Shown: positions 8,699-24,398, counted from the stretch's first letter. The stretch is 64,000 nt of DNA from Minisyncoccota bacterium (GCA_038106525.1 JAYOEC010000001.1:24876-88875), one strand, 5' to 3'. Program-made: numbers and translations. Notes: generated from the sequence alone by a model not told the origin.

Positions 8699-9366
8699 AA
8701 GTAATCCGCGAGGAATTCGGAGAGGACTATGGTAACTACCGCTTTGGATACTGCGTGTGGTGCCACCTGGAGCAGGATGATGAGCTTCGAGATATCTATG
8801 CAGGCGGATTTCTCCCATACTCAAAAAACCCAGAAGAGAAGAACACATTTTATATGGCACGGAGTGCTCGCGTCACGCTTAGCCAATTTGAGCCGTCGAG
8901 CGAAAATAGGAGGATTGCAAAAAGGTTCGATGGACAGGCCAGGCGCGAACTGCTTACTCCGGCAGAAGCAAAGACGGACCCGGAGTGCATCCCGATGGTG
9001 CTTGAGTACTTTTCAAAAAAACACGGCGCTATTGTCATGCCGGAAAATCGGCTTATCGGAATACTTGACACACCGCTCCCACTCAGAGTCGTACGGTATG
9101 TGGGCGACGCAGTGCTTGGGTATACATTTGAAATCGTAGCGGAGGGGGTGATGCACTTTTGGTATTCAGCGTACGATATGCGGTACGCGCAAAAATCTCT
9201 AGGCGCATGGCTTATGCTTGACTCAATTCGAAATGCAAAATCAGAGGGCAGAGCGCACGCGTATCTTGGCACCGTCTACGGCGAAAAGGGAAAATACAAA
9301 ATGAACTTTCAGCCGCTCGAATACTGGAACGGCACTGAATGGATTGGTGGGCGCGAGAGGACTTGA
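8695..9366 (+). CDS. ATE/Bpt-family aminoacyl-tRNA--protein transferase (arginyl/leucyl-tRNA protein transferase-like)
   Basis: N-terminal Cys motif FGYCVWC (ATE_N-like CGYC). C-terminal block HFWYSAYDMRYAQKSLGAWLMLDSIRNAKSEGRAHAYLGTVYGEKGKYKMNFQPLEYWNGTEW aligns with the Bpt/ATE_C pattern YSFYDP..SLG..L..I..AK..G...YLGY...C.KM.YK.NF.P.E...G.W. Start ATG overlaps the mpl stop (ATGA). Confidence 0.6.
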   Translation: MKVIREEFGEDYGNYRFGYCVWCHLEQDDELRDIYAGGFLPYSKNPEEKNTFYMARSARVTLSQFEPSSENRRIAKRFDGQARRELLTPAEAKTDPECIPMVLEYFSKKHGAIVMPENRLIGILDTPLPLRVVRYVGDAVLGYTFEIVAEGVMHFWYSAYDMRYAQKSLGAWLMLDSIRNAKSEGRAHAYLGTVYGEKGKYKMNFQPLEYWNGTEWIGGRERT

Positions 9367-9430
9367 ACCTCCACCCCCTTGCGGGGACTACGACCTGAAC
9401 GTAGCGTGTCTGCCATTTCACCACGCGCCC
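9345..9430 (-). tRNA. tRNA-Leu(CAG), long variable arm, CCA encoded
   Basis: Reverse complement: GGGCGCGTGGTGAAATGGCAGACACGCTACGTTCAGGTCGTAGTCCCCGCAAGGGGGTGGAGGTTCAAGTCCTCTCGCGCCCACCA. 7-bp acceptor, anticodon loop TTCAGGT (CAG), T-loop GGTTCAAGTCC. Its 3' end overlaps the last ~20 nt of the convergent Bpt-like CDS. Confidence 0.8.
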
Positions 9431-9470
9431 ATGTGGCTTAGTGCCTAGGATACTATAACAAAAAACCGAG

Positions 9471-9543
9471 TGCGCACTCTAGGATTCGAACCTAGGACCG
9501 CTCGAGTATCAGTCGAGTGCTCTACCAACTGAGCTAAGTGCGC
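9471..9543 (-). tRNA. tRNA-Ile(GAT), CCA not encoded
   Basis: Reverse complement: GCGCACTTAGCTCAGTTGGTAGAGCACTCGACTGATACTCGAGCGGTCCTAGGTTCGAATCCTAGAGTGCGCA. Anticodon loop CTGATAC (GAT). Immediately downstream of the 16S 3' end, as in rrn spacers. Confidence 0.8.
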
Positions 9544-9756
9544 ATGCTCATCCTATATACCAAAAAAAGCATTGCCCGTCGAGCGCCAAAACGCGACGAG
9601 CATCCAGATCCAAAGAGCTTTTCTTTCTTCTGCCCCGATCCACCCCCGTTTCGTGTATCGGGGTACCGAGCGCCAGTTTAGAGTTGTGCGCCAATACTCT
9701 GTGTCGTTAGACAATCGACCGGTAAGTCATCCCAAATTGTGGGACGACCTTTCCGT

Positions 9757-21159: not shown

Positions 21160-21188
21160 GCAAAAACCGGCACCTCATGGTGCCGGTG
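21160..21188 (-). terminator. Intrinsic terminator downstream of 5S rRNA
   Basis: Minus strand reads CCGGCACC-ATGA-GGTGCCGG followed by TTTTTG. Confidence 0.6.
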
Positions 21189-21204
21189 TGCATCGTATCG
21201 AGTG

Positions 21205-21320
21205 CTCTGTTCTGGCGACTAGCTACTCTCCCCTTGCGAGTACCATCGCTACTACCGCGCTTAACTGCCAAGTTCGGAATGGGATTGGGTGTGACCACGG
21301 CGTCGAATCACCAGAACAGA
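21205..21320 (-). rRNA. rrf: 5S ribosomal RNA (compact, ~105-115 nt)
   Basis: Reverse complement CTGGTGATTCGACGCCGTGGTCACACCCAATCCCATTCCGAACTTGGCAGTTAAGCGCGGTAGTAGCGATGGTACTCGCAAGGGGAGAGTAGCTAGTCGCCAG. Flanked by 16-nt inverted repeats (21190-21205 and 21312-21327), a likely processing stem. Confidence 0.8.
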
Positions 21321-21401
21321 GCACTCGGCTCTGCGTACACTGACTCTTGCATCACAGCAACAACACCGAGCGGTACAATTGACTCGCTCATGGCGTTCAT
21401 A

Positions 21402-24398
21402 CTTCCCCACGGGAGATCGGATCATTAGTATGTCTCGGCTAAACGCCTTACGGCGCGTACACCTAACACCTATCAACCTGATCATCTCTCAGGGTCCTTA
21501 ACGATTCCTAATCTTGGAGGCGACTTCCCGCTTAGATGCTTTCAGCGGTTATTCGTTCCCGACATAGCTACTCGGCAGTGCCACTGGCGTGACAGCCGAC
21601 AGACCAGAGGTCAGTTCATCCCGGTCCTCTCGTACTAAGGACGACGCTCCTCAAGAATCCACGCCTGCAGTAGATAGGAGACCAACCTGTCTCACGACGG
21701 TTTGAACCCAGCTCGCGTACCACTTTAATTGGCGAACAGCCAAACCCTTGGAACCTTCTCCAGCTCCGGGATGTGGTGAGCCGACATCGAGGTGCCGAAC
21801 TCCGCCGTCGCTATGGACGCTTGGGCGGAACTAGCCTGTTATCCCCAGAGTAACTTTTATCCGTTGATCTGTCCCCGCATCTAATGCGAAGGATAGGCTC
21901 ATTATGCTCAACTTTCGTTTCTGCTTGACATGCACGTCTCGCAGTTAAGCTCGCTTGTGCCATTACACGACCGGCACGCTTTCCATACGCGCCTAGCGAA
22001 CCTTTGTAGGCTCCTCCGCTACTCTTTAGGAGGAGAGCGCCCCACTCAAACTGCCTGCCACGCACTGTCTCCCACGAATTGTCGTGAGGTTAGAAATTGC
22101 AACGCATCAGGGTGGTATTGCACTGACGAGTCCATGCCAACCGAAATCGACACTTCAACCTCTCCCACCTATGCTACGCAGATGAATCGCAATCCCAATA
22201 CGAAGCTACAGTAAAGCTTCTGGGGTCTTTTCGTCTAACTGCAGGTAACCGGCATCTTCACCGGTATTGTATTTTCACCGAGCAAGCCCTCGAGACAGTT
22301 CCCCAGTCGTTACGCCATTCGTGCACGTCCGAACTTACCGGACAAGGAATTACGCTACCTTAGGACGATTATAGTTATCGCCGACATTCACCAGGGCTTA
22401 TACAGTCCAGCTCATCAGATTACTCCAATGAACCACCCATACTTGACCTTCTGGCATCGGTCAGGCGTCACCCCCTATACATCCTCTTACGAGTTCGCAG
22501 GGAGCTGTGTTTTTGTTAAACAGTCGCCAGGAAATCTTTCGCTGCGGCCCTCCCCCCGAAGGGGTTGGGCAGGCCTTATCCCGAAGTTACGGCCGCTTTT
22601 TTGCCGAGTTCCTTAAGGACCTCTCACTCGTTCGCCTTGGTCTACTCGACCTGACCACCTGTGTCGGTTTGCGGTACGGACTCATACCTGTTATGCGTAG
22701 AAGGTTTTCTGGGAAGCGCGCTCCCAAACCTCTCTGCGGACGAATCCGCAGATTGCTGCACCGCTCGGATTAGTGTGTCCCGGATTTTCCTGAAGACACA
22801 TCCTCACGGTACTGACCCACATCCAATCATGGGCGTTTAGTACAGCACTCCGTCACTCCTTAGCACAGGCACGAGGTTACGGAATATTAACCGTATGTCC
22901 ATCGGGTGCGGCGTTCGCCATCCCCTTAGGCCCGACTAACCCTTCGTCGATCATCGTTGCGAAGGAAACCTCGGTCTTTCGGCGTGCAGGGTTCTCACCT
23001 GCATTGTGGTTACTTGTGCCGGCATTCTCACCTCGCAATACTCCAGCATGGGTCACCCCTTTGCCTTCAGCGCGATTGCGAGCGCTCTCCTACCGCTCCC
23101 TGCAGACGAATCTGCAGAAAGCCCTCAGTTTCGGTACCGCACTTAGCCCCGATTATCTTCGGCGCAAAGACTCTCGATGAGTGAGCTGTTACGCTTTCTT
23201 TAAATGGTGGCTGCTTCTAAGCCAACATCCTCACTGTCAACGAGTCAATACTTCCTTGTGATGCACTTAGTGCGAATTTAGGGACCTTAACTTGAGATCT
23301 AGGCTCTTCCCTTCTCGACGTATGGAGCTTAGCCCCCATCGTCTAACTGCCTGCTTATTAACTTTTGGTATTCGGAGTTTGATAGGATCAACGAGATTTC
23401 TCCCTGTTTGACCCTTCCAGTGCTCTACCCCCAAAAGGAACAACAGACGCCAGCCCAAAAGCTGTTTCGGAGAGAACCAGCTATTCCAGGGTTCGATAAG
23501 CTTTTCACTCCTTGTCACAGGTCATCCGAAGGCGTTGTACGACCAACCGGTTCGGGCCTCCCCCCACCTTTCGATGGGGCTCACCCTGCCCATGACAAGC
23601 TCACCCTGCTTCGGGTCCTACGCATGCGACTTGCGCACTATTCATACTCGGTTTCCCTTCGGCTCCAGGCCATAACGCCCTTAGCCATGCCGTATGCGTA
23701 GACTCGCCGGCTCATTCTTCAATAGGCACGCCGTCGAGGAATAAATCCTCTTCGACTCCTTGTAAATGTGCGGTTTCAGAACTATTTCACCGTCCTTCCG
23801 GACTGCTTTTCACCTTTCCCTCACGGTACTTGTTCACTATCGATCTCTGTATGTATGTAGCCTTGCCGGTTAGTTCCGGCAGATTCATCCAAGCTATTCG
23901 TGTCTCGGATTACTCAAGATCGATGGCAAAAGAGAATGATGCATTTTAAGTACGGGGCTGTTACCCTCTGGGGCCGCTCGTTCCAGAGCGTTCTTCTATA
24001 CATCATCTTTGTAACTCTTCTTCCAACAAGTGGAACGCCATCGCCTTACAACCCCTACTCGATTGCTCAAGCAGGTTTGGGCTTCTCCCTTTTCGCTCGC
24101 CGCTACTCAGGGAATGCTACGACGAACTTAGAGCTTAGAAGCAGCATCAGCCGCTTAGCTCAAAGTTCGCCATGTGTTAGTCTCTTTTCCTCTCGGTACT
24201 GAGATGTTTCACTTCCCGAGGTTTGCTTTCTGACAATACTGTCAGAATCGCGTGATCGCTCACACGGGGTTTCCCCATTCGGACATCTCCGGATCAAAGG
24301 TTGCTCGTCACCTCCCCGAAGCGTTTCGCCGACCGCTGCGTCCTTCATCGCCATACAGAGTCAAGGCATCCACCGCACACTCTTCAGACTCCCATAGG
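21402..24398 (-). rRNA. rrl: 23S ribosomal RNA (~3.0 kb, no large insertion)
   Basis: 5' end (reverse complement of 24360-24398) ...GAAGAGTGTGCGGTGGATGCCTTGAC. 3' end ...GCCGAGACATACTAATGATCCG. Conserved blocks throughout. All track ORFs in this span are spurious. Confidence 0.9.

Follow-up and report, generated by a model that had tools for sequence, protein, structure and literature searches.

The 64,000-nucleotide stretch of a Minisyncoccota bacterium genome analysed here (GCA_038106525.1, JAYOEC010000001.1:24876-88875; hereafter the window) carries its ribosomal RNA (rRNA) genes in two pieces, a 23S-5S unit and a 16S unit about 10 kb further downstream. These very probably form two independent transcription units in a Paceibacteria genome. 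That small-subunit (SSU) and large-subunit (LSU) rRNA genes are unlinked here, each with its own predicted expression signals, was the core of a preliminary description made from the DNA itself, and it is supported. The interest of the locus rests solely on a conserved candidate switch in the leader of the 23S gene, which goes beyond the published record: a short open reading frame (ORF) and its pairing with a downstream hairpin suggest a translation-sensing attenuator of 23S-5S transcription.

RNA genes were called with Rfam and ARAGORN over the whole window, and all five lie on the minus strand. The 23S rRNA gene (21406-24396; RF02541, 2426 bits, model positions 1-2925) is full length and without large insertion, and directly after it comes a compact 5S rRNA gene (21210-21315, 106 nt), extended by a terminal stem of 19 nt (21308-21326 with 21200-21218, 95% complementary) to an element at 21200-21326. 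The 16S rRNA gene (9756-11214; 1,459 nt, full model coverage) starts 9,995 nt from the 3' end of the 5S gene and 10,191 nt from that of the 23S gene (21406 to 11214). It is followed by tRNA-Ile(GAT) (9470-9543) and tRNA-Leu(CAG) (9345-9430), both found by Rfam and by ARAGORN, instead of tRNA-Ala and 23S. No further rRNA or tRNA was detected by either program within the 64 kb, and no 23S gene lies in the 9.7 kb of the window downstream of the 16S gene. Ten protein genes on both strands (11573-21145; Pfam, NCBIfam) occupy the interval between the two units. The preliminary description had given this same arrangement, including the minus strand, the compact 5S, the ten intervening genes and the two tRNAs, and its boundaries (23S at 21402-24398, 16S at 9757-11215) hold to within a few bases. 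Its view of the tRNA-Leu(CAG) as unusual did not survive comparison, as this gene is found near the 16S gene, together with tRNA-Ile(GAT), in five related loci (L003, L006, L018, L063 and L071). Relatives have tRNA-Ile 0.7-1.9 kb downstream of the 16S gene, and tRNA-Leu is sometimes located 5' of that gene (L006).

The arrangement was compared with 80 loci that were fetched through matches to the window's SecD protein and searched with the window's rRNAs and proteins. All SecD relatives belong to the patescibacterial class Paceibacteria (Taylor-, Kaiser-, Paceibacterota and similar; 46-59% identity), the best matches being Taylor-, Kaiser- and Paceibacterota metagenome-assembled genomes at 50-58%. 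The window 16S shares 74-85% identity with Paceibacteria relatives and about 73% with ordinary bacteria, the latter from a search of a plasmid collection. Judging from these closest proteins and rRNAs, and from the reduced form of its own rRNAs, the host is a member of the Patescibacteria (candidate phyla radiation, CPR), class Paceibacteria. Across the clade the layout as a rule reads [23S][5S], a small gene, rodA, a glycosyltransferase on the opposite strand, a sugar transferase, in some cases an epimerase and folD, secD, secF, and then [16S]; a kinase-like gene and an opposite-strand pyrH are optional between secF and 16S. Both rRNA units, flanking secDF in the order and on the strand of the window, are present on 22 independent related contigs, where the end of the LSU unit and the 16S gene are 5.7-15.9 kb apart (10.0 kb in the window). 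The 16S gene follows secF by 0.3-5.1 kb in 40 of 53 informative loci, and 5S/23S precede rodA by 0.8-3.6 kb in 39 of 41; by this comparison, the place of the 16S gene varies more than the link between 23S-5S and rodA. Conservation continues upstream of the 23S gene, with the genes for L10 and L7/L12, a hypothetical gene and a mechanosensitive (MS)-channel-like gene, so that a fixed neighbourhood emerges (L10-L7/L12, hypothetical, MS-channel-like, 23S-5S, rodA, glycosylation, secDF, pyrH, 16S-tRNA-Ile) that likewise goes beyond the published record.

Because the rodA-glycosylation-folD-secDF-pyrH block is an old, clade-wide synteny, the comparison indicates that the rRNA split is an inherited and stable trait of the clade and not a local accident. 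The neighbourhood persists in lineages with no more than 74-85% 16S identity to the window, and the split would therefore date to an early ancestor of the clade. It is conceivable, as speculation, that it arose by tandem duplication of an operon together with the protein block, followed by reciprocal loss, which would explain the shared strand and order. Paralogy of the two leaders was considered as support for such a duplication and rejected: in a local alignment of the two window leaders, only a 16-nt boxA-like motif is shared (score 22, p about 0.05 against shuffles), and nothing significant is common to both beyond it.

Each unit is furnished with signals of the rrn type. Promoters were scanned as matches to a TTGACA/TATAAT-type sigma-70 consensus, scored out of 12, with shuffles as background; the signals below all lie on the minus strand. 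Ahead of the 23S gene, at a distance of 195 nt, is a candidate promoter TTGACA-17-TATACT (24591-24619; 11/12), with homologous promoters in L206-L209. It is followed by a leader hairpin with a run of six T (AAGGCCGC-CACCA-GCGGCCTT, 24495-24519), whose arms covary in L207 and L208, by a boxA-like motif (GTTCATTGACAACTTG, 24465-24480) and by the 5' arm of a processing stem (24455-24468). This arm pairs with a 3' arm 3,095 nt away (21346-21359) over 14 gapless nt at 93% complementarity, and the pairing extends further with indels. Beyond the 5S gene, a putative intrinsic terminator (21166-21187; 9-bp stem, 7 GC pairs, T-run) ends the unit; as a motif, it matches the one that had been placed at 21160-21188. 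Two tandem terminators had also been proposed ahead of the 23S promoter. Both hairpins with their T-runs are present, yet they are not in tandem, as the candidate promoter lies between them: the outer one (CCCCCGC-TTT-GCGGGGG plus T-run, 24694-24720, read directly) ends the MS-channel-like gene, and the inner one is the leader hairpin itself, directly before the boxA-like motif.

The 16S leader repeats the hairpin-boxA layout at 11363-11314. Its candidate promoter, TTGACA-18-TAGAAT (11452-11481; 11/12), lies 238 nt upstream of the 16S gene and is conserved in L202, L203 and L210; as a motif match it bears out the earlier expectation of a separate 16S promoter within 11216-11572. A hairpin with a run of six T (GCCGGAGC-AAA-GCTTCGGC, 11338-11363) is conserved in L203 and L210 and precedes the boxA-like motif (GTTCGTTGACAATTTG, 11314-11329), and a processing stem of 29 nt (11253-11281 with 9610-9638, 90% complementary) brackets the 16S gene. 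No weaker promoter directly 5' of the 16S leader hairpin, where relatives have theirs, was acceptable by eye. Between the 3' arm of this stem and tRNA-Ile lies a further hairpin with a run of seven T (9562-9601, minus strand), and a run of six T follows tRNA-Ile (9455-9469, minus strand); because of these, co-transcription of the 16S gene with the tRNAs is uncertain.

In the whole window, three promoter sites score at least 11/12 against 0.52 expected, two of them being those upstream of the rRNA genes on the correct strand. The third (TTGACA-16-TATACT, 61583-61610, plus strand) lies 33 nt upstream of an ORF (61643-62473), in an intergenic region between divergent genes; the N-terminus encoded by this ORF resembles a P-loop ATPase (GKGGSGKTT). 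This near-consensus site suggests use of sigma-70-type consensus promoters by the host genome. The boxA-like 16-mer GTTCRTTGACAAYTTG occurs exactly twice in the window, once per rRNA leader, against 0.14 expected, each time about 20 nt after the leader hairpin and its T-run, and it resembles the rrn boxA. The exact 16-mer is absent from all 80 related loci and a degenerate pattern is required, the motif of the relatives being YTTTGA(A/C)AA, often with TTGAAA. When the 450 nt 5' of the 16S gene were taken as the leader in 40 related loci, a promoter of at least 10/12 was present in 27 (background 0.08 per 450 nt) and the boxA-like motif in 36 (background 0.35 per 450 nt). A hairpin ended no more than 25 nt before boxA in 21 of these 36, against 9.6% at random positions, and the distance from the -35 element to boxA was mostly 53-98 nt. 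Rfam searches of the leaders at E<=1 returned no known RNA family, only weak terminator-like matches. By analogy with E. coli rrn operons, the promoters, Nus-factor loading, RNase III stems and terminators are inferred to function as they do there. The boxA between promoter and rRNA in both leaders would make them antitermination leaders of the rrn type, with binding of NusB/NusE predicted, and the complementarity around 16S, 23S and 5S would correspond to RNase III-type processing stems with putative cleavage.

Taken as two units, the ancestral 16S-tRNA-23S-5S operon would now exist as independent and co-oriented halves. One would run from the promoter at 24619-24591 through leader, boxA-like motif, stem-bracketed 23S and stem-bracketed 5S to the terminator at 21187-21166; the other, about 10 kb downstream, from the promoter at 11481-11452 through leader, boxA-like motif and stem-bracketed 16S to tRNA-Ile and tRNA-Leu. 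An assembly artefact could mimic this arrangement, if contigs ending in 16S and in 23S-5S had been misjoined or the protein block misinserted. Metagenome assemblies do often break at rRNA genes, and many of the related contigs start or stop inside 23S or 16S. However, the same order with the same intervening genes is seen in 22 contigs from different studies, in a single 766-kb contig that holds both units (14.6 kb start to start; 13.2 kb in the window) and in published circular genomes. Moreover, an independently assembled Logan contig (SRR26337559) is 100% identical to the window over 11150-14753, across the 16S/pyrH junction, and base composition is even across the rRNA region. The artefact is thus so improbable that misassembly, the caveat attached to the preliminary description along with its call for a synteny check, is excluded for practical purposes. 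A single long operon, in which the transcript of the 23S promoter would run via 5S and the protein genes into 16S, draws on the minus strand common to the rRNA genes and to all intervening genes except the GT4-type glycosyltransferase and pyrH. Those two genes, the latter convergent with the kinase-like gene, stand in its way, as do the 9-bp GC-rich terminator after 5S and the 16S gene's own 11/12 promoter, boxA-like motif and private processing stem, which are conserved in relatives; we regard such an operon as very improbable. It is also conceivable that both hairpins 5' of the 23S gene are true terminators and that the real promoter lies downstream, its -35 element being the TTGACA within the boxA-like motif; the same would hold for 16S (TTGACA at 11323), and the upstream 11/12 promoters would drive separate short transcripts. 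Both leader hairpins do look like full intrinsic terminators with runs of six T, and TTGACA is a perfect -35 hexamer with T-rich sequence before it. No acceptable -10 element is found at 16-18 nt, however (CAAACC, AGCAAC), the motif of relatives fits the consensus of rrn boxA rather than a -35 element, and a strong promoter precedes it there by 53-98 nt, all of which makes this placement improbable. Separate transcription of two units is supported because each unit has a full set of rrn-type signals and two opposite-strand genes lie between them. Several points weigh against it nonetheless. The promoter, terminator and boxA calls are motif matches, and over 9000-25500 the overall numbers of promoter-like and terminator-like sites equal shuffle expectation, with only the near-perfect sites in excess; in 13 relatives, at least 5 kb beyond secF are free of a 16S gene, whose position is thus not universal; and the rRNA copy count rests on the 64-kb window, not on the rest of the genome.

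The leader of the 23S gene was compared in 25 upstream regions, including the window, three relatives from a genome scan, 14 usable 23S 5' ends of Paceibacteria type from a metagenome scan and four closer relatives found through the MS-channel-like gene. A common layout is present in 21 of the 25: a strong promoter, a start codon (ATG 11-17 nt after the -10 element; in L098 GTG, 7 nt after it), an ORF, hairpins, a boxA-like motif and 23S. The mini-ORF has 10-15 codons and is rich in K, N and R. In the window it runs from ATG to TAA at 24579-24538 on the minus strand, with its ATG 11 nt after the -10 element, and would encode MSTITRGTRRKSR. After it come a variable internal hairpin, a GC hairpin with the core CCGC...GCGG and a run of five to seven T, and then the boxA-like motif. 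The first tests used 17 of these 23S leaders. In 16 of them, the -10 element is followed after 9-19 nt by an ATG, as it is in none of 27 relatives' 16S leaders, and the ATG frame is open in all 17, while the two other frames are open in 2 and 6. Among closer relatives, the frame is retained through compensated indels (AGAGGCACCAGGCGG vs AGAGCACCTCGGCGG). Some of the predicted leader peptides (MNTSKNSL...) may resemble the cmlA leader MSTSKNAD, a likeness that plays no part in the reading given here.

The terminator's 5' arm finds its best partner for pairing within the last codons of the mini-ORF: in 16 of the 17 leaders, this partner ends between 8 nt before the first base of the stop codon and 3 nt after it (9 nt before in L194). 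When the nascent leader is folded as far as the 5' arm, the minimum free energy structure pairs this arm with the 3' end of the ORF in 15 of 17; duplex z values average -2.6, and 11 of the 17 leaders fall below 0.05 individually. A later fold-energy test covered 21 leaders. In the alternative fold, the A-run of the ORF pairs with the U-run and its GCGG with CCGC, and this fold is lower in energy than the terminator fold, or at most 2 kcal/mol above it, in 18 of 21. The terminator arms themselves covary (GGCCGC/GCGGCC, GACCGC/GCGGTC, GCCGCC/GGCGGC). A formal count of covariation in MAFFT-aligned leaders was dropped, as the helix arms were out of register, and energy and shuffle tests were used in its place to evaluate the switch. 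A leader ORF that is conserved as an ORF in 21 leaders is accompanied by predicted, mutually exclusive folds in which the anti-terminator strand overlaps that ORF, as in attenuators.

In their simplest mode, these elements may operate as follows. The mini-ORF would start 4-10 nt from the predicted 5' end of the transcript, and its A-rich codons and ...GCGG 3' end would pair with the terminator 5' arm and the U-run to form an anti-terminator. A translating ribosome would cover the anti-terminator strand, allowing the terminator to form and stopping transcription before 23S, while without translation the anti-terminator would form and RNA polymerase would read through to boxA and 23S. In effect, the capacity for translation would feed back negatively on the synthesis of LSU rRNA. 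That the 23S leader is a two-state RNA, with the mini-ORF end as anti-terminator strand and translation favouring termination, is a plausible proposition to which we give slightly less than even weight. The broader claim of a clade-wide, cis-encoded ribosome feedback, in which a near-leaderless ORF of 10-15 codons permits 23S read-through when ribosomes are scarce or stalled, in bacteria with a single rRNA copy and without an anti-Shine-Dalgarno sequence, is put forward more tentatively still.

Alternatively, the hairpin may only be a boxB-like element of a constitutive leader, with the mini-ORF untranslated and termination unregulated; the A-rich GCGG segment would then be conserved purely as RNA, or would bind a protein or small ligand rather than the ribosome. 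The 16S leaders of relatives are indeed short promoter-hairpin-boxA arrangements with no ORF, like the boxB-boxA order of E. coli. A K/N/R-rich peptide is what an A-run followed by GCGG would encode, a block in the 16S leader (described below) is conserved even at synonymous positions, and the leaders contain no known Rfam element. Such a constitutive leader accounts poorly for the ATG at a fixed distance from the -10 element in 23S leaders and not in 16S leaders, for the ATG frame being the only one to stay open and to be kept through compensated indels, for a stop codon that always abuts the anti-terminator strand, and for the genuine T-run of five to seven after the hairpin. On balance we consider it rather unlikely. 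The attenuator nevertheless has evidence against it as well. Among the 23S leaders, that of the window itself shows the weakest signal for an anti-terminator (z -1.1 and 0.0), and 4 of the 25 upstream regions (L019, L029, L068 and L149) have no recognisable promoter or ORF. The leaders compared are kin, so that the counts are not independent, and the invariant GCGG/CCGC core contributes no covariation. The host clade lacks an anti-Shine-Dalgarno sequence, which leaves no Shine-Dalgarno signal to score for the mini-ORF, and an A-rich, GCGG-ending ORF could be an untranslated by-product of RNA pairing.

A comparable device may exist before the 16S gene. Most relatives have the short 16S leader of promoter, boxB-like hairpin and boxA, but the sub-lineage of the window (L202, L203-205 and L210; pyrH 89-62% identical) has a long one instead. 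It contains a block (11392-11426, minus strand) with two overlapping mini-ORFs, MVLLHL* (11426-11406) and MKTFI* (11409-11392), followed by the hairpin with its T-run and then boxA. The block, ATGGTGCTCTTACACCTATGAAGACATTCATCTAAT, is conserved nearly base for base: it is identical in L203 (pyrH 68% amino acid identity) and has one change in L210 (62%). The conserved stretch extends over about 50 nt in these two relatives (11392-11440, minus strand) and matches no known RNA family. Within it, the 5' hairpin that holds the first ATG covaries (CCATAC/GTATGG vs CCTATAGC/GCTATATGG), and RNAfold pairs the block with the 5' arm of the terminator. Near-perfect conservation points more to a role at the RNA level than to a peptide. 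As such, the sub-lineage may hold before its 16S gene a device analogous to the 23S switch, different in sequence and similar in layout.

The protein genes between the two units begin with pyrH (11573-12256, plus strand; Pfam/NCBIfam). From there, a P-loop kinase-like gene, secF, secD and folD follow in that order on the minus strand, and beyond folD lie a NAD-dependent epimerase and a Bac_transf sugar transferase, also on the minus strand. The GT4-type (group 1) glycosyltransferase (18185-19297) is on the plus strand, and rodA/ftsW (minus strand) separates it from a hypothetical gene of 250 amino acids (20393-21145, minus strand), whose likely start at 21145, not 21298, places it after the 5S terminator. 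The hypothetical protein could be assigned to no family in Pfam or NCBIfam, and tblastn against the 80 relatives gave no match; a gap of 0.8-3.6 kb is kept all the same in relatives where the window has this gene. The UMP kinase encoded by pyrH scores above the threshold of the archaeal-type equivalog model TIGR02076 (169.9 bits, cut-off 158) and below that of the bacterial model (40 bits, cut-off 244). On the 5' side of the 23S unit lie the MS-channel-like gene (24734-25420; Pfam PF05552) and rplJ-rplL (26196-28100, minus strand), the latter with a TPR-repeat protein in front of it in place of rplK-rplA. Within the 64-kb view, this context may fit the Parcubacteria group lacking uL1, which has been linked to anti-Shine-Dalgarno loss (Tsurumaki et al. 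2022, PMC9297842). A gene at 28182-31655 (minus strand) encodes a 1,157-aa protein in which an N-terminal peptidoglycan-binding domain is the sole recognisable domain.

The rRNAs themselves are reduced. In the 5S rRNA, the tip of helix IV and loop D is cut from 16 model positions to 5 nt. The 16S gene ends in GGATCAATTCCAAA (9756-9770, minus strand) and not in GGATCACCTCCTTA, so that the CCUCC anti-Shine-Dalgarno sequence is absent, as it is in all relatives with a complete 16S 3' end (GGATTATTTCAA and similar). Parcubacteria are known for a 5S rRNA of 105-110 nt without helix IV/loop D, a shortened 16S and anti-Shine-Dalgarno loss (Tsurumaki et al. 2022, PMC9297842); with its 5S of 106 nt and no anti-Shine-Dalgarno sequence, the window is a typical example that shows no difference. 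In many relatives (L018, L023, L029, L030, L052, L063, L071 and others), large insertions, probably introns, interrupt the rRNA genes at recurrent sites, which in window numbering are at about 731, 1091-1104 and 1328 in 16S and about 2040, 2366, 2607, 2700 and 2748 in 23S. The window 16S and 23S are free of them. Many contigs that are Paceibacteria by rRNA and synteny (L003, L005, L007 and others) carry the title 'uncultured Candidatus Saccharibacteria', with Nitrospira and Gammaproteobacteria as the titles of one contig each; by appearance, these are unreliable automatic labels or binning errors.

In E. coli, the rrn leader comprises a boxB hairpin and boxA, which serve Nus-factor antitermination, and RNase III processing stems flank the rRNAs. 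The window shares the order of promoter, hairpin and boxA-like motif (GTTCRTTGACAA vs GCTCTTTAACAA) and the long flank pairing around each rRNA. Unlike in E. coli, each of its units has the full set of elements and the hairpin is followed by a true U-run; the action of NusB/NusE and RNase III is predicted. Split rRNA operons are familiar from Thermus thermophilus and from the reduced symbionts Buchnera, Wolbachia, Rickettsia and Borrelia. There, too, a 16S unit and a 23S-5S unit have their own promoters in small or slow-growing genomes; those units are usually far apart and lack a conserved neighbourhood, whereas in the window 23S-5S lies 5' of 16S on the same strand within a conserved synteny block. 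The symbiont context is also cited in PMC8172020.

Within Patescibacteria, the split is well documented. The phylum is among the clades with unlinked rRNA genes (Brewer et al. 2019/2020, 10.1101/705046), 27 of 34 circularised CPR genomes are unlinked (Lui et al. 2021, PMC8172020), and in circular Paceibacteria/Kaiserbacteria genomes 16S is nearer 5S than 23S, at SSU-LSU distances of 6.5-16 kb (Lui S1 Table, PMC8172020). The separation of 10,191 nt makes the window unlinked in the sense of Brewer et al. (10.1101/705046), and it is of the 'unlinked by distance' type of Lui et al. (PMC8172020), with the GT4-type glycosyltransferase and pyrH on the strand opposite to the rRNA genes. The Paceibacteria order 23S-5S ... 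16S, on one strand and several kb apart, is found in the window too, with 16S nearer 5S and an SSU-LSU distance (10.2 kb) within the known range; a small genome is also shared, and so are genes in single copy, as counted over the 64 kb. The preliminary remark that separate SSU and LSU expression is typical of reduced lineages agrees with both studies (10.1101/705046, PMC8172020). These papers give status and distances only; the conserved gene block and leader elements are described here, and nothing essential differs. As the arrangement is already documented for Paceibacteria, the window adds one more example and alone changes little.

If true, the 23S leader switch would show how unlinked, single-copy rRNA genes are tuned in output, and it would offer a simple system for testing the long-standing notion that ribosomes feed back on rRNA synthesis. 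Leader peptides of the trp type are ribosome-mediated transcription attenuators. Further ribosome-mediated attenuators are the B. subtilis bmrCD leader (PMC4191407) and antibiotic-sensing upstream ORFs (uORFs; PMC12121999). No published leader-peptide attenuator upstream of an rRNA gene was found in the literature searched, which was itself incomplete. Like these attenuators, the 23S leader has a short ORF overlapping an anti-terminator strand that competes with an intrinsic terminator. Unlike them, it would control an rRNA and not an mRNA, with three segments and not four; its mini-ORF has no regulatory codon run for one amino acid and would be translated from an almost leaderless start in a host lacking the anti-Shine-Dalgarno sequence.

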